A DNA stretch of 44,185 nt, filler included, from Sphacelaria rigidula (taxonomy: Eukaryota), in NCBI GenBank assembly GCA_964200075.2. It is 2 parts of 2 records of this genome, joined end to end, with 100 filler letters (N's around TTAATTAATTAA, not from the genome) between each part and the next. Parts side by side here need not be neighbours in the genome. Positions count along the whole stretch, not along the records: positions 1 to 22,048 come from CAXNAA020000361.1; 1 more part is not named here. The stretch is one strand, 5' to 3'. Positions 1-30,531 of the stretch are shown here, piece by piece. Position 1 is the first letter of the stretch. The number at the start of each line of letters is the position of its first letter. The notes beneath the pieces were generated by a model. The model was given only the letters and a program-made list of their open reading frames with translations. It was not told the origin of the DNA and ran no database searches. The position numbers and the translations under genes are program-made.

Positions 1-2403
1 GCGCTGGATGCCCATTTTTTTCGTGCCATTTTTAGCTGGTTTTGGGGGGGGGCTATCGTAGAAAGTGTCCCCCATCATCCAAGACAAGGTACTTCTCAAC
101 ATACAAAATGCTCTGTTTGTACGTTCAACACCTGCAAAACGGAGTGCAACAGCCAAATTATACATCATCCTCACGCTAGGAGGAAATACGCACCCAACAC
201 GCCTAAAACGCACCTGGCCTCTTGCTTCTATAACACCGTAAAAAACGTATGCATCGCATGCGTCCCCGCCGTCGAAGCTTCAATGCTTCAACTTGCTATC
301 ACTTCATTCAGACAACCAAAGGGAACCCATGACTTAAACCGCAATTCAAGTCATGTACACTAATCCAACGACTGCGAACGGACCTCAACCTCCGCCATCA
401 TTGATCACCACTCCTCGTGAGCTCATTTTTGAACTCTTGTTTTCAGGCTAATCCCAGACATTTCCATGTCTTGTTTGGATCTTGGACCGTCATATCACAT
501 CCGTGCATCAGCCGAAATGCAGAAATAACGACTTCCTCGACACTCTTGCAGTCCACCCGCACCAGTTCTTCGAACAAATGGACGCATCATCCACGTGCTG
601 CTTCTGACATGAACGAAAAGTCAACCACGTGCTCGTTCAAACACGTGACAGTCCATACAAAAACGTGCCATGGTCAAAGATCATTGATGCATGCGTGCAT
701 AATGTTTTCATCTTCAAATACCGGAAGCACTCGCGTCATACCTGCTCTCATACGACGAGCCTACGCATTTTGTATCTTTCAGCTTATTTTCACGCTGACA
801 GCAGCAATCCATATCTCCTGGAGTCAGTACGTGCAAACCGCACAAATTTGGTTCGACTATGTTCCGGCGCGAACAAGATTATACGAGCTCCCTTCATTTA
901 GCACACAGCAGTATATTGAAAACTGCCCCACCCTAGGTCGTCACCAGATACCATTCATATCAGTACCGTTCTAGCAAAAGTTCGCACATGCCAGCCAAAT
1001 TTCCGCTCAGCATATGAGAATCCGCACATGCATGCCAATATTTCACTCAGCACGTGCAATGCCACTTTCCTCGCAGCAAGCAGCGAGCATCGCCTGTGCC
1101 AACAGATCAGCACAACACACACATGCCAAATATCCACGTGTACGCCAGAGTTTTACTCTGCACACACGATACGATCATACTCGCTCAACAACCATGTTTC
1201 ATGCGCAAATATGACCACAAACCACACAATAATAAGCTGAAATCATCCTCAAAACGATTCTCGAATACCAGTCATGATGTGTTTCCTCATTCTCAACAAG
1301 CACTCAATCACCACAGCACTTGCTCCTCAACATCATCACCCCACTCGGCGCTCACTACAACAGCAAACACCTCAGGTAATGCCTTCTTTGTAGTCCTCCA
1401 GCCCGCTTCTGAGAAACAGCAGCACTCGAACCACAACCCATTGCACAGCGTAGAGCCGCTGCCTTTCCTCTCGGACACTCCCTCCTTGCACCTTCAGTCT
1501 AGCTACACCCAGCACCCCCATGGTGTAGCTCAAGACGCCTCGCCTCTGAAAGGTATATTCGCACCGCCGAACCAATGCGACAGATTCTCTGCCCCCACAG
1601 ATGCTTGCGCATTCATAAACGCTCGTTCTTTAGTCGCTTTCACAGAGGAAATAAGAGGCAAAACCGAAACATCCATACATTCCCGCTCAGCAACATCAAC
1701 CGATGGCACCACGTTATCCTCTTCCAGCACCTGACCGTACAGCGGTAAAGACACCGCAATCAACGCCGCCAAATACGCCACATCTGTCCATGCATACAGC
1801 AGTACACACGACCACCCCCAACACCACGCGACGCTCGTCGTCGCCGTCAGAATTGTGATCGCTAACAGCATCACGAGCTTGCAGCTCGCTCTGCGTACCC
1901 GCTTCACGCAGGTCACACGCCCCTATTGTTTCGTTCATGAAGTATGTTCACAGCCACGCGCTGCTCCGGCGGCCATTCCGCCAACCCGTCATCCACCTGT
2001 CCGTCAAGCAGACACCCCTGCAAATCATCTGACCGACCTCCCGCCATGTTACTGGCGCAGATTGATACACCCTGAGAATCGCAAGCCCCAAGCTTGCTCT
2101 TCTCAATCACATCACGAAGATCACACCCCCTTGCAGCGGTGAGCATGTAAGGTGTGTCTCCAATCACGATCTGGTCCGGCGGCCACAAGCAACCTGGACC
2201 TTCCCGCTCAGCGCTGGCTCATCGGAGCAAGTTGGCTCCGCACTTCCAACAGCAGCGGCAGCAGCGGCTGGATCAAATATTCTCGCTTCAGCCACCACCT
2301 CCTGCTCAGCGCACTCGTGATCTGCAACAGCTCGAGCTGCGTGACATATTCGCCCTCTCCAGCAGCAATACCAGCAGCATCCAAATCAATGCTTACCGTG
2401 GTG

Positions 2404-2686
2404 TGTGAACCTGCCTGAAACCAGAACAAGGTTACAGTGCTGCTCCAAAGGCTTCCTCCCTGTCCATGGCTCCAGAGACTTGAAGGCTCCAAGCAGTCAT
2501 AGGAACAGCAGTCTTCGTCAACCAGAAGTAATCTTGCACCTCGTGTGCAAACATCATACATCACGGAGTCCACCGATCATACTCTCAGACCCGTTATCCA
2601 TCAACCAGACTATAAACGCTTGCTATGCGTTCTCTCCACTGCAGTCATGTACCGAATGAACGTAAAAATGTTGCCCGGAGTCTAAA
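2404..2686 (-). mobile_element. Solo LTR of a gypsy subfamily inserted in copy A
   Basis: Absent from the homologous position in copy B (15981-16008). Reverse-complement similarity to the LTR 3' parts at 5690-5777 and 16200-16294. Flanked by GGTG/GGTA (4-bp TSD, one mismatch). Confidence 0.75.
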
Positions 2687-2704
2687 GGTACTGTCAGCCG
2701 GCGC

Positions 2705-3112
2705 GCTCTCATGTCTACCCCTTTTGACAGACACGTACTGCGTCTCCTTCCCACTTTGCACAGTGGAAGCAGCTGCCCTATCGTGATTTGAGACGCGCCC
2801 TACCGACTGCACGTTCAACGGGTGCACTATCGCGCCTTTCCCCTCGGGCAGACACATGCTTTTCTGCTTTCACAGAGCAAGCATCTGCCCTGTGTCGTTG
2901 TTTCAAACGCGCAGCACCTACTGCACGTTCAGCGGGTGCACTGTCGTGCCTGTCCCCTCGGGCAGACACATGCTTCTCTGCTGTCATAGGGCAAGCAGCT
3001 GCTCTGTATCGTGGTTTCAAACGCGCAGCACCTACTGTACGTTCGGCGGGTGCACTGTCGTGCCTGTACCCTCGGGCAGAAACATGCTTCTCGGCTGTCA
3101 CAGGGCAAGCAG
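2705..3112. repeat. 114-bp tandem repeat, about 3.5 units
   Basis: CCCTCGGGCA recurs at 2841, 2955 and 3069. The homologous array in copy B (17320-17610) is one unit shorter. Confidence 0.9.
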
Positions 3113-3452
3113 CCCCACCGGACGGCGCATGCTTCCGCAACGCGAAAAGCAACCGCTCGTCCTCGACGTCATAATCATGCTTCAAGAACGTGTCACACAG
3201 ACATTTCACAATATGTTTCAGCATGAGCTCAGAAACTGCTGCCACCTCAAAGAGGTTTGTCCACCGCACGTTCACCTGATCTACATCTCGCACATGTTGC
3301 TCATGTTTTCGTAAAAACTCGGCCGATTTCTCGCTCGAAAACTTGCGGCCGTAGTACGGCATCTCCAGCGCCAGTACAGGAACAATACGACCATCGACGA
3401 TGACATATTCCTGCGCCTCATCCCGTTCGGTCAGCAGTACAGTACTCCACAC
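2778..3452 (-). pseudogene. Truncated gag-like ORF fused to 38-aa tandem repeats
   Basis: LEMPYYGRKFSSEKSAEFLRKH...SELMLKHIVKCLCDTFL aligns by eye with gag LKVPEYGRVFSEQASRRFYQRY...KHIQNCVSDTIF. Homologues at 17439-17959 (-), 19200-19583 (-) and 21873-21970 (+). Confidence 0.7.
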
Positions 3453-3920
3453 CGCCTTTTTGAAAAACGAAGTTGCCTCCCACTCACACGAACAACTCTC
3501 TCCTTACACCGAGACGCGCTGTACCACCTCACAATGACAATGGCCACAGTGCCTTATTTTCACGCAGGTCTCACCACGTGTTTGAAGTCCTTAGACTCCT
3601 CCTCCGTACCTGGCCAAGCGTGGAACAAGCAACACTCGCTGGCTCAACCAGGCAGTAATTTCGCCGCTTTTCTGGAACGTGCACGGGCTCGCCAGCTGTC
3701 GGTCAACCCCCCGCACCCCTCGCACGAGCGATACCACAGCGCACCCTAGCACTGCCTCAGAACCTCCTCGGCTCTACTTGTCCAACTCCTCGCGACGTTG
3801 AGACGCCTTGAGCTGGGCTTGTTTGCTGCAAACTGATCAGGCCTGCAGACGTCCCTATCTTGAAGTGTCAGCTGCGTTTTTAGCGAAGCTGCCGCCTCAG
3901 CGGACTTAATGAACGTTCAT

Positions 3921-4167
3921 TGTAGACCTCTGTCACTCAAGATCAGATTGCCATGTGGCCTCCTCCCATCACGGGCACATGGACTTCAGCAGCTTCAGTT
4001 ATTTATGTAATAACTTTCAGCATAGTACAGGAGGCCTCTCCCCGCCAGAGTAGCAAAATCGGGCCTACTCGTCATGGAGGTCACCATCACAGAGTCCGGC
4101 AATCGGACCCGCAACTCCACCTATAAATGCCCCTAACCTTAGGTAACAATGATGGCTAGAGTCTACA
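3921..4167 (-). repeat. LTR of the non-autonomous family
   Basis: TG...CA ends with a 7-bp terminal inverted repeat. Homologous copies at 12028-12284, 18439-18696 and 21161-21420, partial at 19653-19724. Confidence 0.88.
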
Positions 4168-5139
4168 GACCGCGAGGCTAGTAGTCCATCTGGACCATGC
4201 ATACTTTTTTCAGGTGAAAAGTTATGCCGATTCAGCATGTGACCAACCATCGCGGTCAAGGAGTTTATTAATATCATATTCATCAAATGAAAAGCCATGC
4301 CCACGGAACAACAAATAAACTTTGAAACGCGAGTTATTCGCCCAACGAAAGCTGTGGAATCATGGCAGCCGATAGATAAATCAAGCTCCTCAAACCATGA
4401 CGAGATGGTGGACCAACACCCGCCCAGGCCACATTACAAACCCGGTGACTATTTGTACTCCACTCGTCTGTGTAAGGGCCGGGCCGTCCTCGTTGAAGTT
4501 CATCAGTACATATGACTTTGTCGCATGTTGAGGACATCATGTTGCTCCAGCTTTGATTCGCTTCCCCCCCCAAAATGGTTCAGCTTCCTGGTTTCACTTA
4601 CCGGCGTTGGGCTACAAATGTTCATGGTTAATATTACTTGATTTAAGTGCCTTCAACGAGAATCGAATTTTGGTAGGGCTGACGGTTCCGTATGCTCCTC
4701 GGCTACGCACAACGCGTTTTCCTTGAAATTGGTGCCACAGGCGCCGATTTGGGGTCTACCAAGGCCTTCACTTAATGCAAGGAATGTATGTACCGCCCTT
4801 GCCCGAGTGTTCTCGGTGTGCATTGGGTTTGTTCAACCCAACCAGCCTCTCCTTGCATCCCAGGGTATCGCAAGCGCGGACGAAGAAAAGCGACCCAGTG
4901 GCATGTAATACATGAGGAGCAACAACAGAAATAACGGTAGGGTTCTGCTTTTCGAATGCTGTACACTCTTTCTCGGTATGAATTCTGGATTCATGCCGTT
5001 CTCTTCCGATGACGTAGGGCACATTTTACCCCACGAGCCTGGATAAGCCCCAGAAGTCGGTCTGTTCATGTCCGTTCGTGCTTTTGGTCGGTGACACGTT
5101 TTTTGCCCATTTTGGGGGGTCAGGCGCGCCCAGTTGGCG

Positions 5140-5525: not shown

Positions 5526-5777
5526 TGTCAAAAAGTATAGTTGCACCTCTAGTATAAGGAGTACGGTAGTTTGCGGATATCAGTTTGGATCGTGTGACAA
5601 CGATTTGGAGGATGATTATTTTTGCGTACCATATTGTGTTTGCGAGGGGAGCGAAGAAGGGTCACTTCTGGTTATTACGAACACCGCTGTTTGAATAACT
5701 GCTTGAGTCTTGAAGTCTGTGGAGCCCGTGACACAGAGGAAGCCTCTGGAGCAGCATTGTGACGTTGTTTTTTTACA
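5526..5777 (+). repeat. 5' LTR of the gypsy element
   Basis: Runs TGTCAAAAAG...TTTTTTTACA. The first ~95 bp recur at 11069-11163, which starts TGTAAAAAAA, the inverted complement of this LTR's end. Confidence 0.85.
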
Positions 5778-5956
5778 ATAAACGTTTACTCAGAAAACTT
5801 GTCGTTTCTGAATTAGGTTTTTGAAGTCGCACCCGACCATTCGTAGAACGTGAGGGCGCTCATGTTGAATAACAGGGGGGGAAAAAAAGCGGCGGAGAGT
5901 GGGGCGTAGGCCACTCGAATCCAAGGCGACTGCGGTGGCAGGAGGCTGTTGGAAGG

Positions 5957-7137
5957 ATGGCAGCGCGAACGGAAGGGGGCACCAGCGAGACGGTTGATGA
6001 GGTGAAGTTTTGCAGTAACCGAATCAACAGTGGGTGGACCCTTGAAAGTGCCCGAATATGGGCGAGTATTTAGTGAACAAGCCTCCAGACGCTTTTACCA
6101 ACGGTATCGAGAGTATGAGGAGGCAGTGGGAAAAAGGAACAAACGCCGGTCGGTTAAGTGCGCACTCTTGACCATCCAAGAGTTGGTTGGCGCCCAAGCA
6201 CATCCAGAACTGCGTGTCTGACACCATCTTTGGCGGGTTGCCGCTCGACGAAGACGAGGTGCAGCAAGGGGTTGCAAGCCAAGCTAAATGCTGCATCAAC
6301 GTGAAAATTGATCCTTCCGAAGCTGCAGCAGGCTTGAAAAAGGCCCATGCCGCACGGTCTGAACCAACTGCAATGGGTCGAGGAGAAGGGCAATGGCGTT
6401 CATTATAGGGGTACTTTGCGGAAAATGCAGGTGCGGAGTGCGTTTTCCTTGAATCTTACCGTACGTTCAAGGCTGGTCCAGCACACATCATTACCAGTGT
6501 GCTATGGTCGCCGGCCTGACCCCACCTGAGTTCAAGAATGAAGTTCAAAATATACTCTATATGAAAAGCGACTCGAAAGAGAGCCCGAGAATGGTTTATG
6601 AGGTAGCTCATGACTTGGCGGAAAAATAGAAGACTGTGAAGAAGGTTGACAAACACCGCGGCCAGCAACCGCGACTTGGGCAAAAAAGCGGCTGACGGCT
6701 CGAAAAAACTGACATCGCATGCCGGCGCAGCGGCTGCGGTCGCCGCAGCGTGTGGTGGCGGTAAGAGCTCGACCAAGCCCCACACACCTGATCCGAGCTA
6801 TGCAGGTTGTTTCGAGTGTGGCGATAAGGGCCACTACGAGAAGGACTGTAACAAACAGAGCACACCTGCGGCCGCGGTGAGTGCGTCAGGTGGGCAAGCA
6901 AAGTCGTCGCCGCCGCCGCCGCAGCAGCAGCAGCAGCAACGAGTCTATGGTCAGCGGGGGGGCAGTAAAGGTCCTGCTCCCACACGGACTGTTTTCCCGG
7001 GGGATGGGACGCAAGGGGGTACTAGTAGTGCGGATAGCATGGTGCCACTCCAGCCTTCCGCTCCAGCTCTTGCAGCTCAACCCCAACTGCCGTCAAGACC
7101 GGCTCAGGAGTGGACGTCTCAGTCAGTTCCGGTATAG
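5957..7137 (+). pseudogene. gag: gag pseudogene with CCHC zinc knuckle
   Basis: Frameshifted pieces LKVPEYGRVFSEQASRRFY and KHIQNCVSDTIF; knuckle CFECGDKGHYEKDC (CX2CX4HX4C) near 6808-6849. Confidence 0.88.
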
Positions 7138-7182
7138 CGGGGTCTGCACACCGCTGAGGTTGCAGATTTTCAGGCTGAGGGT

Positions 7183-10100
7183 GTGGTAGTTGACCGCAAC
7201 CAGCGGTGCTGCCGGGCAGACTTATCCGTTCCAAGTTCTACAATCAAGAACGTTTGCCCTGTTACTGCAGTTTCGGATTCGGGGGCTGGCATCACTATCA
7301 TGTCTGAAAAAGTGACGGCCCAGTTGCAAGCTGTGTTTTCTGATGTGCCAGCTGTCACGAGCATGGCTCGTGCACACCCGGTGAAACTAGCTGATGGTAA
7401 TGTACGGAGTATGCAGTCAAAGACGTGCCTGTTGTGCACCGTTCTGCACACCAGCTGGGGGCCGGTGGGCTGGATCCGTGTCATTATGCGGTCATGCCAG
7501 GTGCCGATGATGTGGTGATCATCGGGAGCGGTACGCTGAAGGCCGTGGGCATTGATTGACGTGTAAAGTAGGCTGGACGCATGCGCACGCTCAAGGCACG
7601 CGTTGGTGAGAGCTGTAGATACGCCTGAATTCCGAGAATGTAGGCGTGTGAGCATTGCGATTGAGGCGTCACAGGATCCAGGCGGATAAGAGGGGCCTGT
7701 GGATCCCTCCGTTGAGCGATTGATGTCGCGTGGTCCCGAGCGATTGATGCCGTGTTGCATTGGATCATGCGGTACAGGCGGCCGCGGACAAGGGGATGTC
7801 GGCGAGCGGCTTTGGTAAGCTTCGGGAGGTTGTTGGGCGACGTGTCAACGTTTTTCGGCGAGCACTGCGCGGTGATCCGCCTGCTCGGGTAGAGCCATTA
7901 AAGGTGAGATTCCAACCTGGGGCTAGAGCAGTCAATGCGAGCCCGCGGGTGTATTCCCCTGTAAAGGCAATGTGGTTAGCAGGGTGTATGGCGACACTGG
8001 TGGCGCTTGGGCTCGTATTTCGCAGCTCACAGGCAGTGTGGGCGAGTGCAGCCATGGCGACGCCGAAGAATGGCGGTTCTCGACTGGTGAGGGATTATTG
8101 CGCTGTAAACGAGCAGATTGAGAAGGTTCCGCATGTTATGCCTAACCACGAGGCGGAGATGATCGATTTGCTAGGCGCTGCGTATTTTGGCAAGATTGAT
8201 ATGCTGCAGGGTCACTGGCAGATGCCGCTGGCGGCTGATGCACAAGAAATATTCACCATCGCCCCTCCTGAAGGTCTGTCCCCCCCCCCCCCCCCCCCGG
8301 GGCCCCCAGGGGGGGGGAATGCGACGGGGTATTTTCAAGGCATCATGACAGAATTATTGACCGGACTTCAGTGCAAAGTATGGGCGGATAATATCTTGTG
8401 GTGAGGTAAAGATGAGGATGATCCGTTGTGTATACTGGACGAGATATTGGGCCGTTTGGAGGATGCTGGGTTTTTTGCGGCTGCGCACAAGTGCATGCAT
8501 GTTCTACGACACACAGATCACGTGGTGCGAGAAAGTCTTTTCAGGTGGTCAAGTGGCTCATGACCGCGAGAGACTGAGCGGGCTGGCCAATCTTAGGCAC
8601 CCGCGCACAGCAGGCGAGCTTGTGCAGTTCCTGCAGGCGGTAAACTGGCCGAGAACGTCCCTGCCGCGTCTGGCGGAGGTGGTGGAGCCGCTGCGGGTAT
8701 TACTGGAGAAGAACATGCAGGGAAACGCGCGCCGAACCAAGCGAGTGGCGTCAAACCGGACAATCAAGGATTCGGCATGGACATCCAGGCCTGCTCAGGC
8801 GTAGCACGAGGCGCAAGATTTGGTGGCGCATGCTGTCGCTTTGTCCTATCCCAAGTAGGGGTATGAGGTGCTCATGTTTCCAGACGCATCAGATCTACAC
8901 TGGGGAAGTTTTCTTACGTAGGTGCCGAAGGATAAGTTGGGTGGTACATTGGCGGTGGAAGACATGAGCCATGAGCCGATGGGGTTTCTTAGCGGAACTT
9001 TTCGTGGAGCGCAGGTTCGGTGAGCTACGGTGGACAAGGAAGACTATGCGATCGTAGGTATTTTCCGTAGGTTGGAGTATCTTCTATGGGTTGGGGTACA
9101 TATCTTCACCGATCATCGTGATCTACCATACATTTCTACCCCCGAGGCGTGCGTTGCACCCGTGTCTAAGACTGCTGCCCAGAGGCTCGAGCAATGGAAG
9201 GCTGTGCTCGGGCAGTACGATTACTCCACCAGGCACATTGCTGGTGAGCGCAACTGCTGGCGAGATTTATTGTCAAGGTGGGTAAACGTTCCGGCGGTGT
9301 CTGTGCGTGCTGCGGCCGTGTTTGCGAGGGGTCAGCCTGATGAAACGCTGCCGCCGAAGAACGCTATTCGTGAGGCCCAAGAGCAGGCTCAAGCCGGGTT
9401 CGGAATGATGATTGCTGGAGCCCCAAGTTTTGCAGCAGCTGTTGGACGAGTTTCGAAAGACGGTGAGGGTTTATTGAGCGTGCATGTGGCAGGGCGGAAT
9501 GTGTTGTGGATCCCGCCGGAAGCAAAAGAGCTGCAAGCACGCTTGATGGTATGTGCTCACATATAGGGGCGGGCCGGGCCATCGGGGTGTTGTGGCGACT
9601 CTGCAGCGGCTGCGAGAGTATTTCTGTTGGTTCCGGATGGAAGCTCATGTGACAGATTTTGTGAGGAAATGGTTGCATTGTTTGGACTCGAAAGCGGGTG
9701 AGACGGTCCCGCGGCCACTAGGGGAGACAGCGCATGGCACACGGCCCGGTGAGGTGATACAGTTTGATCATCTGTACGTTGGTGACAGTGATCCGCTGGG
9801 CGAGAGCGGCCTGGATGAAGGCAACAGGTACAAGTAGATATTGGTTATGATGGATGATCTGTGCAATTTCGTGTGGTTGAAGCCCACCGAGTCGTTTACA
9901 GCTACAGCGACGGTGCAGTATCTGTTGGCGTGGTGCAAGGTGTTGGGTCCGCCGGAGGTCTGGGTTAGTGACACCTCGTCGCATTTCAAGAACCGTGTGA
10001 TGCGAGGACTGGAGAAGGCGCTGCAGCTGGACAGGAGGCTAGCGGTTCCCAACTCACCGTGGTCGAATGGTACGTGTGAAAGGATGATGCGAGAGGTTGT

Positions 10101-10893
10101 CCGTACTTTGAAGGCCATACTGCAAGAAGAGAGGCGCGACGTTCGTGACTGGGTGGGACTGGTGCCTGCTGTACAGTGGGCATTGAACACGGCATTCCGC
10201 GAGCGCTACGCCAGTACGCTATACCATGTGATGTTTGGACGGGCGCCGCGCACAAGTTTTTCAACCCTGGCATCGTCGACCGTTGGCCAGTGGCGACTTG
10301 ATGGGCTGGATGAGGACATGCTGCGGGAGAAGGTGGCATCAGTCGTGGAGGCGCAGCAAGAGCTGCAGAAGGAGGTGGCGCAGCGTGTTGAGAAGACTCG
10401 TGAACTAACTGCAACGACGTTAGTGAGGGACAGTCGCCAAATTTCATGGTGGGTGACTATTTCTTGGCTGCGCGGGTTAGGCGCTCAGGAACAACGCCGA
10501 AACTCGTAAGTGCGTGGCAGCGGAGCAAAAACATGTCTACGAGATTCAGGATATTGTGAATGGCGAGGTAAAGGACGCGCATGTCGCCCGTGTCCGGTAC
10601 TATGCGGACAACGAACTGGAGGTCACCGCGGATGTGAAGCATGTGTTCCAGCATGCATATCTCAAGGAGAGTTCGAGATGGATGCCATCGCCGGGATATC
10701 TGAGGCTCAAGAAGGAAATGGCTACGATATATGTGTGAAATGGGTAGGTTTCGACGAGGACGAAAGTTCATGGGAGCCATTGGGTGTTATTTGGAGAGGA
10801 GCGCCGCAGTTTGTACGATCTGAACTGCGGAAATTGATATTGAATAAGAAGGTACGGGAGCGTCTGAAGACCAAGTATGGTATCAAGCTGTGA
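7183..10893 (+). pseudogene. pol: pol pseudogene: aspartic protease, RT, RNase H, integrase, chromodomain
   Basis: Protease AVSDSGA. RT: LVRDYCAVN, KIDMLQGHWQMPL, VWADN (decayed W-x-DD). RNase H: FPDAS, DKEDYAI, IFTDHRDL, HIAGERN. Integrase: HHCC region (CAH..GHRG..WLHC), FDHL, WVSD, SNGTCER. Chromodomain ICVKWVGFDEDESSWEPL at about 10667-10893. Confidence 0.95.
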
Positions 10894-11068
10894 CTAGTTG
10901 TCTGGGTACTTCGTGGATGAATTGTATCATGCGATTGGTGTTCGTCGAGTATACCACTTGGTTATCGTTTGCATGATTGTTCTTTGTTGACATCCCAGAT
11001 TTATTGTCGGTGTCTACTGATGATCAAGCTCGTTTTCTACCTTTGAGTAGAACGTAGCTTGGGGGTGC

Positions 11069-11163
11069 TGTAAAAAAAGTACAGTAGCACCTCTAGCATG
11101 AGGAGTATGGTGGCATATGGATGTCAGTTTGGATCGTGTGACAACGGTTTAGAGGATGATTAT
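11069..11163 (+). repeat. Truncated 3' LTR of the gypsy element
   Basis: Direct repeat of 5526-5620. Followed at 11171 by a short inverted LTR-end fragment (TGTGAACCTGCCTG...AGAACAAGG) like the one at 2404. Confidence 0.85.
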
Positions 11164-11271: not shown

Positions 11272-13900
11272 GCCATGACTCAAACCGCTTTTTCAAGCCA
11301 TGTTTACCAATCCAACAACGGCAAACGGCCCTCGACCTCCGCCATCATTGATCATTCGTAGGAATATCGTTCTCAAACTCGTTTCAACCGAGTACATCCC
11401 AGAAAGCACCCAGATACAATATCCCAACTTGGATTTAGGACCGTGACGTCCCATTGGTCGATCAACCACGATAAAAAATGCAGTTCATACCCCAACAGAC
11501 TTGCACCTAACCTGCACCGCTTCCTTAGACAAACGGACACTCCATCCACATGATGCTTCCAAACGGAAATTAAATATTTTCTCAAAAGAAGTTCCATCGC
11601 CAAATATCTGTCATCTTCAACCACAAAAACACTCACATTGCCCTTGCGCACATACGAGCCTACGCATTTCGTAGTTACTGGTCATTGTAACGCCAACAGC
11701 AGCAGTCACCATCTTCTACAGTCATATTATCCACAAACCGCACAAAGAGAACTCCGCCGCGGGTCTGTGTGAGCAGGAATATACGAGATTCACCGTATCC
11801 AGCATACAGCAGTATACTGAAAATTTCCTCACTCTGACTCCTCGCCAGCTACCATGCGCACTAACACAATGTAGCGAACATTCCATACATGCATGCCAGC
11901 ATTTCACCCAGCACATGCAATGCGACCTTCCTCCTAGTAAACACCATGCACCGTCCGTGCCAACTAGATCAGCACGACAGACATATCCTTAATATCAACG
12001 TGTACGCCTGAATTTCACCCTGCACCCTGTAGACCTAGCCACCATTGTTACCGAAGGTCAGGGACATTGTAGGTGGAGTTGCGGATCTGATTGCCGGGCT
12101 CTGTGATGGTGACCTCCATGACGAGTAGAGCCGGTTTTGCTACTCTGGTGGAGAGAGGCTATGGTCCTGTTCTCCTGTACTATGCTGAGGGTTAATACAT
12201 AAATAAATATAGCTGCTGAAGTCCATGTGCCCATAATGGGAGGAGTCCACATGGCAATCTGATCTTGAGTGACAGAAGTCTAAAATAAACGACCAACTAG
12301 ACTATTGACCAGTGAGCGCTGACTGGTCAGTAGTCTAGTTGGTTATCTCTTAACCGGTCACAACACGCGATACGATCATACTCGCTCAATAACCCTGTTT
12401 TATGCGCAAGCATGACCACAAACCAGACAAAAATAAGCTGCAATCATGCTCAAAACGATTCGCAAATACCATAATGTGATTCCTCATGCTCAACAAGCAC
12501 TCAATCACCTCAGCACTTGCTCAGCACCCAACGTGGCGCCCACCACAACATCAAGAACTTCAGGTAGTGCCTTCTTCGTAGTCCTCCAGCCCGCTTCTGA
12601 GAAACAGCAGCAGTCGTGCCACAAAATCATGCACACCATAGCCCAGCGTTTCCATTCGAACACTCGCTCCGTGTTCCATCGGTCCAGCTACATGGACCAC
12701 CCCCACAGTGCCACTGAGCACTCCACCAAACGGTATACTGGCACCGCCAAACCAATACGATAAATCCTCTGCCCCCACAGATGCTTGAGCATCAGCGGAA
12801 GCTCGTGGATCAGTCGTTTTTTCAGAGGAAAAGAGAGGCGAAACGGCAACAGCCATACAGGCCAGCACAGCAACACCTCCCGATGGCATCACACCATACT
12901 CCTCTAGCACCTGACAGCGGCATAGACACCTCGATCAACGCCGCCAAGCTCGACAAACCTCTCCATGTAAATAGCAGTGCATCCAACCACTCCAACACTA
13001 TGCAACGCTCGACGTCGCTGTAGGATTATGACCACTAATAGCATCACAAGCCTGAAGCTCGCTCTGCCTACCCGCTTCACGCGGATCACACATCCCTGCT
13101 GCTTTCAGCATGCGCGTGTCCACAACACCACGCTGCTCCGGCGGCACCTCCGCCAACGGTGCATCAGCCCTCCTTCAAGCAGACACCCCTGCGAGTCATC
13201 TGAACCATCTCCCGCCATATCGTCGGCGCACAGAGATTTGCCATGAGCATAGCGAGTCCAAAGCTTGCTTTGCTCGTCCGCATGACGCGAATAGCACCCC
13301 CCTGCAGCTTCGAGCATGCAAGGCGTGTCCTCAGCTACACGCTGGTCATCGAACACAAGTCTATCCCGCGGATCTAAATCCGTCAACTTGGAATCCACCT
13401 TTCCTTGAAGCAGAGATTCCTGTGGAGCTGTAGTTGCTCCCACCGCAGGATCATAAGCATCGCACCTATGACAACCTCGGCCCACAAATCGCCGACAGTC
13501 TCGGGGCACTGCATTTTTGTTGGGCGCGCTATTTGGCTCATCAGCGGCTGCTGCAGCCGCGGCGCGCAGACCAGACACTGACGGCAGTTTCTGTGTGTTT
13601 GGCACAATCAGGCGCTTGATCCTGAGCCTTGCCATGTCAAAATTTCAAAAAATGAAAACATTTAAGCTGTCTCCCAAGCACAGAAACTGCAACTTTGCCC
13701 GTATACCAAGACGCGCGTTGTTACCACACTATGGCGACCACAGCACCTCTTTTCACGCAACTCTCACCACGTTTTGAAGTTCCTCCCAGACTCCTCTTCC
13801 TGAACGCGGCTGGCTGACCTGGAACCAGCCCTCTTGCAATTCTCCGGTCTGAGGTAGTAATTGCGCCGCGTTTTTTGGCAGGCTTTCCGGGCAACCCAGC
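11272..13900 (-). mobile_element. Diverged copy C of the non-autonomous family
   Basis: Collinear similarity to about 325-2180 and to the leader at 3460-3680; lacks the gag segment; interrupted by 12028-12362. Confidence 0.7.
12028..12362 (+). mobile_element. Mini-insertion: single LTR (12028-12284) plus a 78-bp tail containing a hairpin
   Basis: The host sequence (compare 1155-1175) is interrupted and resumes at 12363. Flanks are ACCC/ACAC and the insert ends in ...GTCACA. Confidence 0.7.
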
Positions 13901-14254: not shown

Positions 14255-17200
14255 GTTCCTTTCATCCGAGACATGGTACTTCTCAACATACAGAATGCAC
14301 TCTTCGTACGTTCAACACCTGCGCAACGGAGTGCAACTGCCAAATGATACATCATCCTCACGCTAGAAGTAAATGAGCACCCAACACGTCTACAACGCAC
14401 CTGGGCTGTTGTTTTTAAACCCCGTAAAAACCGTATGCATCACATGCCTCCCCACCGTCAAAGCTTTAATGTTTTCTTCAACTTGCCTTAATGTCAGTAA
14501 GACAATCAAAGGAAGCCATGGATCACACCGCTTTTCAAGCCAGGCATACTAATCCAACAACGGCGACGAGCCTACCCATTTCGTATATTTCAGCTCATTT
14601 CATGCTAACAGCAGCAATCCATATATCTTGCAGTCAGTACGTGCAAACCGCACAAATATGGTTATATGAGCTTCTCTTCATTTGGCATACAGCAGTATAT
14701 TAAAAACTGCCCCACCGTAGGTCGTCACCAGATACCATTCATATCAGTACCTTTCGAGCAAAAATTTGCACGTGCTCGCCAAATTTTTACTCAGCACACG
14801 AAAATGCGCACGTGCATGACAATACTTCACTCAGAACATGCAATGCCACCTTACTCGCAGCATACACCATGCATCATCGGTGCCAACTAGATTGGCACGA
14901 CATGAACATGCCAAATACCCACGTGTACGCCAGAGTTCTGCACAAGCGATACGATCATACTCGCTCAACAACAATGTTTCATGCGCAAACATGACCACAT
15001 ACCACAAAATAACAAGCTGCAACCATTTTCAAAACGATTCTCGAATACCAGTCATAATTTGTTTCCTAATTCTCAACGAGCACGCAATCACCTCAGCACT
15101 TGCTCCTCAACATCAGTACCCAACTCGGCGCTCACCATAACAGCAAACACCTCAGGTAATGCCTTCTTTGTAGTCCTCCAGCCCGCTCCTGAGAAACAGC
15201 AGTACACGAACCACAACCCCGTGCACAGCGTGGAGCAGCCTTTCCTCTCGGACACTCCCTCCTTGCACCTTCGGTCTAGCTCCACCTGGCACACTATCCT
15301 CCTCAAACACCCCGCGGCGTAACAGTGGAGACACCTCCGCCATCGCCGCCAAATACGCCAAACCTGTCCAGTGCACACGACCACGCCAACACCACGCGAC
15401 GCTTGTTGTCGCCGTCAGAATAATGATCGCTGATAGCATCACTCTGCGTACCCGCTTCACGCGGGTCACACGCCCCCGTTCGTTTCGATCATGCAAGGCG
15501 TGTTCACAGCTACGCACTACTACTCCGGCGGGAATTCCCCGAACCCGGCATCCATCTGGCCTTCAAGCAGAAACCCCTGCGAATCATCTGACCATCTCCC
15601 GCCATGTCACTGGCGCAGATAGATTCACCCTGAGAGTCGCAAGCCCCAAGCTTGCTCTGCTCACTCTCATCACGAAGATAACACCCCCTTGCAGCGGTGA
15701 GCATGCAGGGTGTATCCCCAATCACGATCTGGTCCGGCGGCCACAAGCAACCTGAACCTTTGCCGCTTAGCGCTAGCTCCCGGAGCAAGTTGGCTCCGCA
15801 CTTCCAACAGCAGCGGCAGCAGCGGCTGGATCAAATATTCCCGCTTCAGCCACCACCTCCTGCTCAGCGCACTCCTGAACGGCAACAGCGGCAGTTGAGC
15901 TGCCTGCAGTCTGCTCGAGCTGCGTGGCGTGTTCGCCCTCTCCAGCAGCAAGCAATACCAGCAGCATCCAGATCAATGCTTACCGCGGTACTATCGGCCG
16001 GCGCGCTCTGTAGAGTAGTCCACCTCCAGTACACGTACGAGCAGGTTCATGATGATATATAAGTGGAACAATCTGCTGTAGACGTTTTCTATTGGTTGAC
16101 GGACTTGCGGGTCTGATCGGTAGACTATGTTGATTTGAACATCACATGCTTCAAGCATGTGGTTACTTCCGATAACGAAGGCTGTGTGTTTATGAATAAC
16201 AACTGTCTTGAAGTCTCCAGGCCCTAGTGAGGGAGGAAGCCCTTGGAGCAATCTTGTGACCTTGTCCTTGTTCCGAGTCCAGGAGGGCTCTATAGTAAAC
16301 GTTTATCAAGAGGAACCCGCTGGTTTCTGGAAGAGGTTTGTCAGCTGTAGACAGCTGCGAAGAAATTATATCAGACGTTTTACACAGGAGTGTGCACTTT
16401 GTAACGTGAGGGAGCTCACTGACAACGGAGAGACGGCTAGGTTGGCTGGAACTGTTGCGTGCAGCTATGGCAACGTGCAAGAAAGTGGGTGATGGCGATG
16501 CAGTTGAAGAGGTGAAGTTTAAGTTTACTGAGCTTATGCCTGCAGGATCGCTAAAAGCCCCAGAGTACGGACGGCATTTTAGCGAAAATGCGTCCCGACG
16601 TTTTTATCAGCAATACGTCGAGTATGAAGAGGCGGTCAAAATGAACAACAAAGGGCGTAGCATGCAGGCCGTCTTACTGACTGTTACTACACTGGGGACC
16701 AAGCACATCTGTGCGTGTTTGTCACGCACGATTATTGACGGATCCGTGCTTGCCGAAGATGATCTCAAGGAGGCACTAGGCCGACATGCAAAATGTTGGC
16801 AGTATGAAGAGATTGATCCTTCAGTTGCTGCCGCTGGTGTGCGAAAAGCGTTGGTGGCCCGCAACGAGCAAACTGCAATGGGAAGAGTAGAAGGGCAGTG
16901 GGATTTGCGGAGAATGCTAGCGCTGAGCGTGCGTTCCGCGATGATGCAGATTTCAAACCAGGACCCGCTCAAATCATAACTCGGGAAATGTTGAATGGAC
17001 TGACCCCCCCCCCCCCCGAATTCAAAACTAAAGTCCNNNNNNNNNNAACCCGGCCCCCCCCAAAACAAAACCTGGGGAAAGGTTAAAGGGCTCGCCCCCC
17101 CCCCCCCCCCGAATTCAAAACTAAAGTCCTCAACATGTTGAACATGAAGGGGGGGGTGGAAGGAGGACCCTGGGCTTGTGTTTAACACGGCTCGGGAAGC

Positions 17201-18696
17201 AGCGAAGGCATGGAAGACGGTGGAAGTGGCGGATAAAGAGCGCCGTTAGCAGCCGCAGCTGAAACAAGGGAGTGACTTCCGGAAGCAAGCGCCAACCAAA
17301 TGGTGGAAAAAATAGCTCTCATGCCTACCCCTTTTGACAGACACGTGCTGCGTCTCCTTCCCGCTCTGCACAGTGGAAGCAACTGCCCTGTATCGTGTTT
17401 TGAGATGCGCCCTACAGACTGCACGTTCAACGGGTGCACTATCGCGCGTATCCCCTCGGGCAAACACATGCTTCTCGGCTTTCACAGTGCAAGCATCTGC
17501 CCTGTATCGTTGTTTCAAACGCGCAGCACCTACTGCACGTTCGGCGGGCGTACTGTCGTGCCTGCCCCCCTCGGGCAGACACATCTTTCTCGGCTTTCAC
17601 AGGGAAAGCAGCCCCACCAGACGGTGCACGCTTGCACAACGCGAAAAGCAGCTGCTCGTTCTCAACATCATAATCATGCTTCAAGAACGTGTCGCACAGA
17701 CATTTCGCAATATGTTTCGGCATGAGCTCAGAAACTGCTGCCACCTCAAAAGAGGTTTGTCCACCGCGCGTTTACCTGATTTACATCTCGCACATTTTGC
17801 TCGTATTTTCGTAAAAACTCGGCCGATTTCTCGCTCGAAAGTTTGCGGCCGTAGTACGGGCATCTCCAGCGCCAGTACAGGAACAACACGACCGTCCACC
17901 GCGACATACTCTTGCATCTCGTGCATTTCGGTCAGCAGTACAGCACTCCACACCGCCATTTTGAAAAACGAAGTCGCCTCCCACTCACAGGAACAACAAC
18001 TCTCTCCTCACGTCGAGACGCGCTGTACCACCTTACAATGACAATGGCCACAGCGCCTCTTTTTCACGCAGGTCTCACCACATGTTTGAAGTCCTTAGAC
18101 TCCTATGCCTGGCCGTATCTGGCCAAGCGTGAAACAAGCAACTCTCGCTGGCTCAACCAGACAGTAATCGCCCCGCTTTTTTTTGGAACGCTCGCGGACT
18201 CGCCAGCTGTCGATGAACGCCCCGCACCTCACGCACGAGCGATACCACAGCCCGCCCTAGNNNNNNNNNNTGCCTCAGAACCTCCTCGGCTCTTCTTCTC
18301 CAACTTCTCGCGACGTTAACACGCCTTGAGCTGGTCTTGTTTGCTGCAAACTGATCAGGCCTGCAGAATTTCCTATCTTGAAGTGTTAGCTGCTTTTTGC
18401 GAACCTACCACTAGTCAGCGGACCTCATGAAAGTTCATTGTAGACTTCTGTCACTCAAGATCAGATTGCCATGCGGACTTCTCCCATCACGGGCACATGG
18501 ACTTCACCAGCTTCCTTTATTTATGTATTAACTTTCAGCATAGTACAGGAGAACAGGACCATAGCCTCTCTCTACCAGAGTAGCAAAATCGGCTCCACTC
18601 GTCATGGAGGTCATCCATCACAGAGTCCGGCAATCAGACCCGCAACTCCACCTACAATGTCCCTGACCTTCGGTAACAATGGTGGCTGGGTCTACA
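14255..18696 (-). mobile_element. Copy B of the non-autonomous LTR family
   Basis: Collinear with 70-4167 apart from internal deletions. LTR at 18439-18696; contains the nested insertion 16009-17314. Confidence 0.8.
16009..17314 (+). mobile_element. Internally deleted gypsy element (5' LTR 16009-16294 plus gag fragment from 16467)
   Basis: LTR TGTAGAG...CTCTATA. The gag fragment LKAPEYGRHFSENASRRFYQQY is homologous to 6030-6400. Flanked by GCTC/GCTC (16005-16008, 17315-17318). Contains an N gap. Confidence 0.82.
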
Positions 18697-19652
18697 GGCG
18701 GCAACAAGCAACTGGGACCTTCGCCCACCAGTACTTGCTCATTGGCCTGCGTAGGCCCGCCCTCTCAGCATCGCCAGCAGCAGCAGCAGCAGTATCACAC
18801 ATACTCGCTACAGCCGCCACCTCCTGTCCGGCTTGGTCCTTTTCGACAAAAGCGGCAACGCCTCTAGCGCTCTCGTACCTTTCCCCTCGAAGTAGCGATG
18901 GCTGTCACTGCCAGCGGCTGCGCTAATTCAGCACTAACTACTGTACTCTCACTGTTCTTGTTGCCCAGCACGTCACTTCGTACAGACACATGCATCGTCA
19001 CCTTCGCGCCCCTCAAAGTGGCACTGCGTCGTTGCTTCAGTCGCGGGCGAGCTGTTTCTACTACTGCACGCTCAGCAGGTGCACTATCGTGCCTGCTCAC
19101 TCGGACAGGCCTATGTTGTGTCGCCTTCTCGCCCGTCAAAATGTCGTGCCTGTCTTCACCGCCGCCGACCTCGACACTACCTTGCACCACACTCGGCGAC
19201 ACATAAGATGCGTGCTTGCGCAGCGCAAAAAACAATTTTCTCGCCCAACATCATTCGCACCATCCAAAAATGTATCAAAATAGACAGTCCGCGATATGTG
19301 CGGGCATGAGGTCAGAGACCTCTGGCTCCTCAACAACGCGCCAGCGTGCTTGACGCTCGTTCGTTGCGTGAATCTCATCAAGAAAGTTCTTATACTTCCG
19401 CAGAAACTGAGCAAATTTTTCACTTGAGAACTTGCGATCGTAGTAGGGAATATCCAGAAGTCGCATACGGACAGCGCGACCACCGATGACAACATATTGG
19501 TGCGGCGCACGAACAACATAGCCGTCCACCGCGACATACTCCTGCACCTCGTACATTTCGGTCAGCAGTACAGCACTCCACACCGCCTTTTCTTAAAAAC
19601 GAAGTCGCCTCCCACTCACAGAAACAACAACTCTCTCCTCACACCAAGACGC
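18697..19652 (-). mobile_element. Older diverged copy D of the non-autonomous family
   Basis: gag-like MWSAVLLTEMYEVQEYVAVDG...LDIPYYDRKFSSEK and degenerate 114-bp-type repeats; the start matches 2178 onward. Confidence 0.7.
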
Positions 19653-19762
19653 GCTGCTGAAGTCCATGTGTCCATGATGGAAGGGGTTCACATAGCTATC
19701 TGATCTTGAGAGACAGAGGTCTATAGTGGGTACTCTGGTATAATGAATTCTTTGTCTGTCAA

Positions 19763-20022
19763 TGTGTGTTGTGTGTGAATTCTGAACACCAGTATTCACC
19801 GTTGAGCATGTGTGGGCGCACCAGCCGGGTCACAGGGAAGAAGGGCCAACACAATCGATTTTTTTCTAGTACTCCATCTTCCTTCCGTGGTGGTCGCCTT
19901 CTTTTTTGTCGCGAGAGGGGTTCAGCAGTCCCCTTCCCTCGTCGATCGTGAAGTCAATTTTGTGTACCCACAACATAGTCGCTCGTCACTGATGGGCATC
20001 GTGTTGGAAAAATTCCAGATTG
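19763..20022 (-). mobile_element. 5'-truncated SINE copy
   Basis: Reverse-complement match to 28210-28500 (GAGGGGTTCAGCAGT core, CA-rich tail). Confidence 0.75.
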
Positions 20023-21160
20023 TGTGACTTCACCCAGATATTCCAGGTAGTTCAGGATTCACACTAGTTGCGTCAGTCGATAGATACCATGCTAAGTCTT
20101 TGGTACTCAAACTAAATATGCCCTGAAAACCCACTCTCCGCATCTCTGTTGAATCAGTGGCATTCCAGTGTAGGTACCATCAGCTTACTGCACCAGTTCA
20201 CCGTTGAATTCGCATATTTTCAACTTCACCAAGTGTGTTTAAACTCAAGTGGGCCACGCATCGCGCTCTCTGAAGCTCATGCTTCATGAAGGTTCTCGCG
20301 GTATACGAGCTGGGCTGGCCAACATACTTTCTTTTTCGGAGGAGGTAACGCGGGGCTGGAGTTGAGGAATTAGGCGTTAAATAATATACCCGTTTTCATC
20401 ACCAAAGCGAAACATAGTTTGGGATACGAAGGAGAGACTGTATGAGGTTTGGGCGATTCGAAATTTCAGCATTAAACTAGAGAACGTCATCCCGAAACAC
20501 TTACCGTTCTACTTGCGCATGTAAGATCCTGGTAAAGTTTCGGCTAACAATTCGTAATAATTTGTGTGACACCGCTGCACCCCGGGGGTTCAACTGATAG
20601 AGGAGCCTCCATTTATATAGATCACGAGTCCGAATCCCCACACGACGTTTTTTCCACATAATCTGGCAGTTTTTAACTAACTGTGAGGAAGACCCATCAC
20701 CAGCGGGAATTAGATCGAGCAAGAGCGTTGCAGCCCAGTCCGAGTTCGATACTTGAGCCTGTGCTGGTTGTGCGTGACACCCGGTTCGGAGGTCCTCTCC
20801 CATGGAGGAGCTGCTGATGAGCTTGATGCTATCTGGCAGCATTCACAGTGCACTCAGTCTGTTCATGTCGAAGTTGTGTCATGTGATGAGTACTTTGCAG
20901 TTACTTAAGTTGTACGTCTGGACACACAGACCGGCGGGTACTAGAGTGGTATATCTTTGGTAAATATTTCAGTGGCTTTCAGATGCCCCACGAGCCAGCT
21001 GTTGGTTGATACGTGCGTAGTTGGTCGCTACCGTATGGGATGACGTAGAATTATCGGAGTTCAGCTGTAGATATATACGTGAGCTTATTTGAAGTTGCAT
21101 AGCTACGTTTCTGAGTTATGTCTTAAAGGGGAGATATGTCCGGGAACTGGCTGACAGGCC

Positions 21161-21975
21161 TGTAGACTCTAGCCACTATTGTTACCTAAGGTTGGGGACA
21201 TTCTGTAGGTGGAGTTGCGGGTCTGATTGCCGGACTCTGCGATGGGTGACCTCCATGACGTGTAGGGCCGGTTTTCTACTCTGATAGAGAGAGGCTGTGG
21301 TCCTGTTCTCCTTTACTATGCTGAAAGTTAATACATAAATAAATAAAGCTGTGGAAGTCCATGTGCCCGTGATGGGAGAAGTCCGCATGGCAATCTGATC
21401 TTGAGTGACAGAAGTCTACAATGAACGTTCATTAAGTCCGCTAACTGGCGGCAGGTCCGCTGAAAGCAGCTAACACTTCAAGATAGGAAATTCTGCAGGC
21501 CTGATCAGTTTGCAGCAAACAAGACCAGCTCAAGGCGTGTTAACGTCGCGAGGAGTTGGAGAAGTAGAGCCGAGGAGGTTCTGAGGTAGTGCTAGGGCGG
21601 GCTGTGGTACCGCTCGTGCGTGAGGTGCGGGGCGTTCATCGACAGCTGGCGAGCCCGTGCGCGTACCAAAAAAGCGGCGCAATTACCGTACTACCTAGTG
21701 GAGCCAGCGAGAGTTGCTTCTTCCACGCTTGGCCAGGTACGGTCAGAAAGAGGAGTCTAAGGACTCCAACACCGTGGCCATTGTCATTGTAAGGTGGTAC
21801 AGCGCGTCTCGGTGTAAGGAGAGAGTTGTTGTTTCTGTGAGTGAGAGGCGACTTCGTTTTTCAAAAAGGTGGTGTGGAGTCTGCACTGCTGACCGAAATG
21901 TACAAGGCGCAGAAATATGTCATTGTCGACGGTCGTGTTGTTCCTGTACTGGCGCTGGAGGTGTCGTACTACAGC
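21161..21975 (+). mobile_element. Copy E: LTR (21161-21420), leader and start of the gag-like ORF
   Basis: Reverse complement of about 3350-4167 and 17860-18696; similarity ends shortly before the scaffold spacer. Confidence 0.85.
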
Positions 21976-28142: not shown

Positions 28143-28504
28143 GCCCCGGTGGCTCAGTTGGTAACCTCGAAACCTTCTGACGGTTGGGTCGTGGGTTCAA
28201 ATCTCGGGGCGATCTGAAACTTTTTCTCACACCATGCCCAACAGTGGAGAGCGACGATGTCGTGGGTACACGAAATCCGACTCAACGGTCGACAAGGGAA
28301 AGGTACTGCTGAACCCCTCTTGCGACAAAAAATTAAGGCAAGCACCGCAGAAGGAAGGTAGAATACTAAAAACAGACAAACAAACAAAAAACTCCCGTGT
28401 TGACCTTCCTTCTGTGTGACCCCGGCTGATGCGCCCACATATCCCAATAGGTGTAGACCGGCGTCCAGAATAGATGGGACGACAACACAACACAACACGA
28501 CACA
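28143..28504 (+). mobile_element. tRNA-derived SINE, near full length
   Basis: Pol III A box TGGCTCAGTTGG (28150-28161), B box GGTTCAAATC (28194-28203), a body shared with two other copies, and an (ACAAC)n tail. Confidence 0.85.
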
Positions 28505-30308: not shown

Positions 30309-30531
30309 GTACAAAGTTCGACTTAATGGTTGACGAGGGAAAGGGACCGCTGAACCCCTCTCGCGATAAAAAATTAAGGCAAGCACCGCAGAAGAAAGGT
30401 GGAGTACCAAAACAAATGAAGAAAAAAAAAATCGGTGTTGACCTTCCTCTTGTGTGACCCCTGCTGGTACGCCCACATATACCGAAAGGTGTAGACTGGC
30501 GTCCAGGACAGATGGGACGACAACACACAAA
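30309..30531 (+). mobile_element. 5'-truncated SINE copy
   Basis: Direct match to 28267-28495, including GATGGGACGACAACAC. Confidence 0.8.

Follow-up and report, generated by a model that had tools for sequence, protein, structure and literature searches.

The stretch of DNA analyzed here, to which we refer as the window, comprises 44,185 nt from the brown alga Sphacelaria rigidula. It contains copies of two LTR families: family A, with copies A1 and A2 and an LTR that has no internal sequence, and family B, with four LTR-B copies (a to d, or Ba, Bb, Bc, and Bd) and a terminal fragment. All of the family copies in the window are decayed, and hence replication competence is shown for none of them. 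Along the window, the features that bear on the argument are the following:

2404..2699, minus strand: LTR-A-type copy without internal sequence, ending in ...GGTTCACA, with no motif after it
2705..3908, minus strand: internal region of family B copy a, noncoding, with 114-bp tandem repeats; its counterpart in copy b is at 17315-18426
3909..3920, minus strand: palindromic motif ATGAACGTTCAT of LTR-B copy a, located by motif search and LTR-B alignment
3921..4169, minus strand: LTR-B copy a, from the four-copy alignment
5526..5777, plus strand: 5' LTR of A1, TGTCAAAAAG...TTTTTTTACA, which aligns with a truncated 3' LTR from 11069 and has 10-nt inverted termini
5778..5789, plus strand: palindromic motif ATAAACGTTTAC of A1 with the perfect 10-nt core TAAACGTTTA, 0 nt past the LTR end, in the position of the primer-binding site (PBS)
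6036..10884, plus strand: frameshifted polyprotein remnant of A1, from tblastn with Ectocarpus polyprotein P0004 and Pfam matches
11069..11163, plus strand: truncated 3' LTR of A1, preceded by a G-run (PPT-like)
12026..12284, plus strand: LTR-B copy d, inserted in family-B-type internal sequence
12285..12291, plus strand: half-site ATAAACG of LTR-B copy d, where homology stops at the palindrome center
16009..16294, plus strand: 5' LTR of A2, TGTAGAG...CTCTATA, from the LTR alignment
16078..16089, plus strand: near-copy of the motif inside the A2 LTR, GTAGACGTTTTC, 22 nt after the TATA-like TATATAAG at 16056
16295..16306, plus strand: palindromic motif GTAAACGTTTAT of A2, in PBS position, with a gag remnant downstream
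16560-17243, plus strand: that gag remnant of A2, from tblastn with P0004
18427..18438, minus strand: decayed motif ATGAACTTTCAT of LTR-B copy b, with one mismatch
18439..18698, minus strand: LTR-B copy b, from the four-copy alignment
19658..19724, plus strand: terminal fragment of LTR-B, ending in ...GGTCTATA, with no motif after it
21159..21420, plus strand: LTR-B copy c, TGTAGAC...GTCTACA, from the four-copy alignment
21421..21432, plus strand: palindromic motif ATGAACGTTCAT of LTR-B copy c, 14 nt with the flanking A and T

On the evidence of its protein matches, family A is a decayed Ty3/gypsy chromovirus. The polyprotein remnant of A1 retains matches to a gag zinc knuckle, protease, reverse transcriptase (RT), RNase H, integrase (zinc-binding and core domains), and a chromodomain, and the order RT, RNase H, integrase, chromodomain is that of Ty3/gypsy. 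With Ectocarpus polyprotein P0004 as the tblastn query, residues 22-1647 were covered over positions 6036-10884. The Pfam matches fall in order along 6640-10893, several of them under the curated cut-offs because this copy is frameshifted. The closest proteins are those of brown algae (Ectocarpus, Scytosiphon, Sphacelaria, and Hapterophycus) together with unnamed metagenome proteins, the latter at up to 86% identity, and the relatives of family A carry PF00385. Between the leaders of A1 and A2, the sole block in common is a 16-nt string, AACGTGAGGG(C/A)GCTCA, at 5847-5862 and 16403-16418, which is able to form a small hairpin of the GTGAG/CTCAC type. The string GTAGAACGT occurs twice in A1, at 5843 in the leader block and at 11047, 22 nt before the 3' LTR, a pair that represents a possible 5'-3' interaction signal.

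The LTR of family B is 262 bp long and has the ends TGTAGAC...GTCTACA. Four copies align with common termini and with four different upstream flanks, which provides an independent check of the boundaries. The internal region contains the 114-bp tandem repeats at 2757-3185 and 17369-17610. For the ORFs tested in the family B region and in the adjoining unit X, no Pfam family scored at or above its curated cut-off; ORF 405-974 matched TPR only weakly, its 16.2 bits falling short of the cut-off of 22.2. Because family B has no recognizable coding sequence, it is probably a LARD-like nonautonomous derivative, one that presumably relies on the replication proteins of family A. A motif common to A and B is what would be expected from the retention of cis signals in such a derivative. 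In Ectocarpus subulatus, LARDs are the most abundant repeats, according to the portion of 10.1101/307165 used here. Neither a 3' LTR-B partner nor a clear target-site duplication was found in the window. The termini of LTR-B are symmetric; we assigned its orientation by analogy with family A, with GC skew and an AATAAA string as further grounds.

A composite unit of approximately 4 kb (X, the B internal region, the motif, and LTR-B) is duplicated at 75-4171 and 14262-18699, the duplicated unit being the family B internal region plus a further 2.3 kb. Each duplicate is broken by an A-type insertion of its own, and the two insertion points correspond to within about 12 nt. One duplicate received a solo LTR and the other the 5' part of A2; a GCTC target duplication is possible. 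LTR-B copy d belongs to an insert that extends from 12026 to about 12362 within family-B-type sequence, ends in ...GGTCACA, and may have a 4-bp duplication that is imperfect (ACCC/ACAC). Starting exactly at the motif center in copy d, there is a near-perfect hairpin palindrome of 52 nt (12292-12343, center AGCGCT). This insert may be a snap-back or deletion product that was broken at the palindrome center.

The motif recurs at one structural position. Five sites lie directly 3' of an LTR end (...ACA or ...ATA), with the motif at 0 nt in 5 of 5 junctions between 5' LTR and internal sequence, and a sixth junction retains the half-site. When RTRAACGTTYAY was searched with at most one mismatch, there were 8 matches in the window (4 exact and 4 with one mismatch), compared to a mean of 1.27 in 100 dinucleotide-preserving shuffles, none of which reached 8. 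All four exact matches adjoin an LTR end at 0 nt, as does one of the four one-mismatch matches. The remaining three, at 27175, 30291, and 34339, are located away from repeat boundaries; the near-motif at 30291 is inside a third repeat family (19779-20020, 28212-28489, and 30311-30527) and not at an LTR boundary. The perfect palindrome core of family A measures 10 nt. That of family B measures 12 nt, or 14 nt when extended by one base on either side (the final A of the LTR and the following T); specifically, AATGAACGTTCATT is a perfect 14-nt palindrome at 3908 and 21420. Perfect 12-mer palindromes are found in the window at chance frequency (12 seen, 10.8 expected). What is unusual, then, is the recurrence of one motif at one structural position, not palindromy per se.

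The first-pass annotation of this DNA had listed coordinates and strings for all of the motif sites, had placed the motif in internal rather than LTR sequence, and had assigned it to the position of the PBS. The coordinates and strings all hold on re-check, and the other two claims are borne out as well. Both the solo LTR-A (2404-2699) and the LTR-B fragment (19658-19724) run into unrelated sequence at ends that lack the motif, which lies outside the LTR. The distance from the motif to the inferred start of gag is about 180 nt in both family A copies (about 184 nt in A1). The LTR/U5 boundary is fixed by the site of the 3' end of the minus-strand primer. Since the motif starts 0 nt after the LTR, it is in PBS position by definition.

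The motif is conserved against flanks that have diverged. The LTRs of the two families were said to differ greatly, and self-BLAST of the window returned no similarity between A and B LTRs; the A1 and family B motifs agree at 10 of 12 positions. Within family A, the LTR ends of A1 and A2 are 73% identical over 77 nt and their leaders share just the one 16-nt block, yet the 10-nt motif core is identical at 10 of 10 positions. Furthermore, the mirror half of the motif is conserved as well as the LTR-proximal half. We regard this conservation as a stronger argument than covariation. Inside the core, families A and B differ in a single, compensatory way: positions 3 and 10 are A-T in one variant and G-C in the other. 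When the five sites are aligned over 20 columns (4 distinct rows), standard pairs make up 85.7% of the cells in 7 mirrored pairs, and the figure drops to 21-50% when the register of the same alignment is slid. One pair changes on both sides, being A-U twice and G-C twice. The observed covariation score, which derives from 4 distinct sequences and 2 lineages, was reached by 166 of 500 shuffles. Thus, of the earlier description of the motif as covarying, what holds is a compensatory change at 3/10 that is real but occurred once; statistically, covariation cannot be demonstrated.

A TGG-type PBS was not found at the LTR ends. None of the five junctions starts with TGG, the complement of the tRNA CCA, in agreement with what had been claimed, and the first TGG strings past the motif come 16-19 nt further on and are not the same from copy to copy. 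We considered whether the true PBS of family B might be a TGG-containing string located 19 nt past the motif, and rejected this because of its distance from the LTR and its lack of conservation. ARAGORN predicted no tRNA genes in the window, and there were no Rfam matches in it.

In each element, the best pairing partner of the motif is the motif itself. Self-duplex energies are -14.7 kcal/mol for family B, -10.7 for A2, and -9.1 for A1, and -5.5 for the mutated copy b. Folded back on itself, the motif forms a 5-bp stem only, and the intermolecular duplex is much more stable. Duplexes between the motif and its own LTR or leader are mostly within the range expected from shuffles. In the minimum-energy folds of all three full B copies, U5 GATCTTGAGTG pairs with leader CACTTCAAGAT and encloses the motif; the overall folding energy is not better than that of shuffles (z-scores of -0.7 to +0.1).

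The possibility had been raised that an arrangement of this kind is undescribed, but a precedent exists in the fungal GalEa copia elements, which have a covarying palindrome after the 5' LTR. As set out in the portion of PMC5445492 used here, these elements lack a tRNA PBS. Immediately 3' of their 5' LTR they have 9 bp, CTGATCAGT or CTAATTAGT, that form a palindrome together with the last A of the LTR. They have a second, complementary copy downstream and no complement in the LTR, and according to the authors no model described so far fits them. On this account, the likeness to the elements studied here is close in kind: neither shows a tRNA-type PBS, the palindrome comes right after the 5' LTR and includes its last A (here true for the 14 nt of family B), there are two main variants related by a G-C/A-T swap at mirrored positions, and an LTR complement of the Tf1 kind is lacking (here in A1 and family B, with A2 borderline). 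There are also differences from GalEa as portrayed there. In family A, the palindrome is a 10-nt core starting 1 nt after the LTR. GalEa is a Ty1/copia element of ascomycetes, whereas family A is a Ty3/gypsy chromovirus of a brown alga, and the core is TRAACGTTYA here but ACTGATCAGT or ACTAATTAGT in GalEa. Finally, the consistent inverse-complementary copy 12-41 nt downstream (CHSeq2) and the defining hairpin of GalEa are missing here. A CHSeq2-like partner in that interval was not consistently found; partial copies of the motif lie at inconsistent distances of about +58 in A1, +66 in A2, and +197 in Bc and Bb, with none in Ba.

Other elements invite comparison. In the text of PMC6317226 drawn on here, the accepted primers are of three types, namely a whole tRNA, a half tRNA, or a 5' end as in Tf1, and plant elements are described as using a whole tRNA, a half tRNA, or self-priming. 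The Skipper chromoviruses of dictyostelids, as presented in part of PMC5006619, have lost the TGG PBS and have a polypyrimidine stretch after the LTR; a novel form of self-priming was suggested for these elements. Like family A, they are chromoviruses without a TGG PBS, and they have no LTR complement, but they have the polypyrimidine stretch where we find a palindrome. Bivalve TRIMs have been compared with the palindrome feature of GalEa (PMC6934838, consulted as an extract). A literature search with an exact phrase for a palindromic PBS returned no match, and searches on brown algae with PBS and on atypical PBS returned nothing on the motif, although the supplements of PMC5445492 and PMC6317226 may list variants.

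Our tentatively favored reading, with a probability of roughly 0.4, is that the motif acts in PBS position as an element that pairs with itself, without priming by the 3' end of a tRNA. A palindrome of 10-12 bp occupies the position of the PBS in a brown-alga chromovirus lineage (family A) and in a probable noncoding derivative (family B). Because the U5 boundary is set by the primer 3' end, whatever primes must pair with the start of the motif, which would not be possible for the 3' CCA end of a tRNA. The selected property would be self-complementarity, and the comparisons above support this as the most economical choice. Two copies of the motif would pair, either between two packaged genomic RNAs or as a small fold-back, and this pairing would either position the primer or, once the palindrome is cut at its 3' edge, supply it. 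Dimer formation and priming would thereby be coupled. We infer RNA self-pairing as the function, along with any cleavage step. In a more specific version, which would amount to a previously undescribed way of priming LTR retroelements and which we consider doubtful, co-packaged genomic RNAs would pair via the palindrome abutting U5, a nuclease (e.g., RNase H) would nick at the 3' edge of the duplex, and the resulting 3'-OH would copy the U5-R of the partner. The motif would then be dimer linkage site and PBS at once, and would have two separate origins, one in brown-alga chromoviruses and their LARD parasites and one in the GalEa copia elements of fungi.

Two alternatives retain priming by pairing with another sequence. 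The motif could serve as a regular PBS whose primer is some host RNA, such as half of a tRNA, an internal tRNA fragment, or a small RNA, but not the 3' end of a tRNA; palindromy would then be incidental or only partly required. We judge this unlikely. Half-tRNA primers are established for some copia lineages, according to the pages of PMC6317226 used here. The two A/B differences are both transitions, and thus a wobble-tolerant host primer could accommodate both variants; given G at position 3 and U at position 10, one host RNA would be capable of pairing with each of them via G-U. Yet because tRNA loops are 7 nt or more, a perfect palindrome of 10-14 nt is unexpected inside a tRNA arm, and the mirror half is kept as well as the half next to the LTR. 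In addition, GalEa has the same kind of palindromy with a different sequence (PMC5445492, in the portion cited above), which points to self-complementarity, not a particular host RNA, as the selected property. Somewhat less likely again is self-priming of the Tf1/sushi type, in which the 5' end of the transcript, arising from within the LTR, folds onto the motif and is cut to give the primer. Family A is a chromovirus, and self-priming is known in Tf1/sushi and Tcn1 chromoviruses (PMC6317226, in part); the resemblance extends to the architecture, the lack of a TGG PBS, and priming presumably by the element's own RNA. However, these systems need a complement of about 11 nt inside the LTR, at the start of the transcript, and no exact match of at least 7 nt, or of at least 10 nt with one mismatch, to the complement of the motif was present in the LTRs of A1, A2, Bc, and Ba. 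When the 16-nt PBS region was compared with each LTR and with 1000 shuffles of that LTR, shuffles did as well as the real LTR in 832 of 1000 cases for A1 and in 950-992 of 1000 for three LTR-B copies. For A2, the number was 35 of 1000, in one of 7 tests and uncorrected; its LTR contains GTAGACGTTTTC, whose duplex with the A2 PBS region has an energy of -11.4 kcal/mol. The solo LTR-A has a similar string, with 71-129 of 1000 shuffles as good. GTAGACGTTTTC in A2 is the only candidate for Tf1-type self-priming, and a borderline one in a single subfamily. The first-pass annotation had set its reading apart from priming in the manner of Tf1, a distinction that stands for A1 and family B and is qualified by the candidate in A2. 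Moreover, priming of this kind needs no palindromic PBS, and the PBS of Tf1 is not palindromic (as given in the portion of PMC5445492 used).

The two other alternatives separate the palindrome from priming altogether. One holds that the motif is a signal for dimerization or packaging, or a DNA site for a dimeric protein, with a primer that needs only a few adjacent bases; we consider this improbable. Self-complementary leader motifs are the dimer linkage sites of retroviruses and Ty elements, the Ty1 leader carries palindromic sequences, and variants of the retroviral dimerization site (DIS) keep their palindromy by paired changes. The motif resembles these in being a short self-complementary element of the leader whose variants remain palindromic through paired changes, and its intermolecular duplex is far more stable than its 5-bp hairpin. 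The retroviral and Ty1 palindromes are located in hairpin loops downstream of a separate tRNA PBS, whereas the motif here is itself in PBS position: at 0 nt from the LTR, it leaves no room for a separate PBS before it, none was found elsewhere, and the first TGG past it differs in place from copy to copy. The part of PMC5445492 that discusses the DIS likewise has the known palindromes in hairpin loops and additional to a PBS. The last alternative, that the motif has no function and is common to A and B by descent or recombination, having survived by chance in a few old copies, seems to us very improbable. In its favor, there are very few independent copies, palindromes this long are common by chance, and the covariation is without statistical support. 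On the other hand, the same motif stands at the same junction in lineages with LTRs and leaders that cannot be aligned, its 8 matches exceed the 1.27 expected, and every exact match is at an LTR end. An analogous feature is also conserved across 44 fungal elements (PMC5445492, same portion).

How a lineage of retroelements initiates reverse transcription is among its defining traits. Until now, a palindrome in PBS position had been reported from a single fungal copia clade, as an oddity without explanation. Its presence in a gypsy-type chromovirus of brown algae and in an apparently noncoding derivative suggests a recurrent, uncharacterized solution for priming or dimer-priming, for which the brown-alga families offer a second, very high-copy system in which the idea can be tested. 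Annotation tools for LTR elements would overlook or misclassify these abundant families if they require a PBS complementary to a tRNA.

We looked for further copies outside the window in several collections. IMG/VR, searched with the RT ORF and an alignment of 9 polyproteins, contained no relatives. Among GTDB contigs there were 4 contaminant loci (L001-L004), none of which extended to a 5' LTR or leader, and a metagenome scan anchored on a 20-nt string from the LTR-B end recovered one unrelated AT-rich contig (L005). In the 4 MAGs behind L001-L004, the motif was not clearly above a reversed-pattern control (2 versus 0 in G003, and below the control in G001 and G004); the three contexts that were examined among the MAG matches were all unrelated, with seven further G004 matches outside those. 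Within the window, no further weak copies of the LTR ends or leaders were found.

Contigs assembled from sequencing reads tell of many more copies. At a likeness of at least 80%, there were 7386-8761 contigs in each DNA run and 682 in X6, over 4 runs. Thousands of related contigs per DNA run indicate that the families are high-copy. Among the 40 of 804 letter differences listed, none was in either palindrome. The highest summed depth fell in two junction bins, which we set aside as evidence, as contig depth cannot rank parts of the stretch. In each of three DNA runs, one contig joins 4167 back to 3899 (3899-4167), with 39 nt on the shorter side of the joint. The order across it is LTR-B, motif, 10 nt of leader, and LTR-B, that is, a tandem LTR split only by sequence of the PBS region. 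A 225-nt contig of X6, which we guess to be an RNA run, covers 3688-3914 and ends at 3914, the palindrome center, which is also the point of the motif where copy d is broken; contig ends prove nothing about RNA ends. At 4829, beside a repeat in 4755-4851, the loose ends of many contigs run into telomere-like repeats of the GGGTTA type.

Elsewhere in the window, two of the three aligned copies of the third repeat family have a continuation (to about 28150 in C1) with a string that by eye is like the T-arm and D-arm of a tRNA; for this string, there was no Rfam match at E values up to 1 and no tRNA by ARAGORN. To the right of the transposon cluster, two ORFs at 33819-36427 on the plus strand match Dynamin_N (E values of 2.3e-06 and 0.0038), and this region is probably a host dynamin-family gene with introns.
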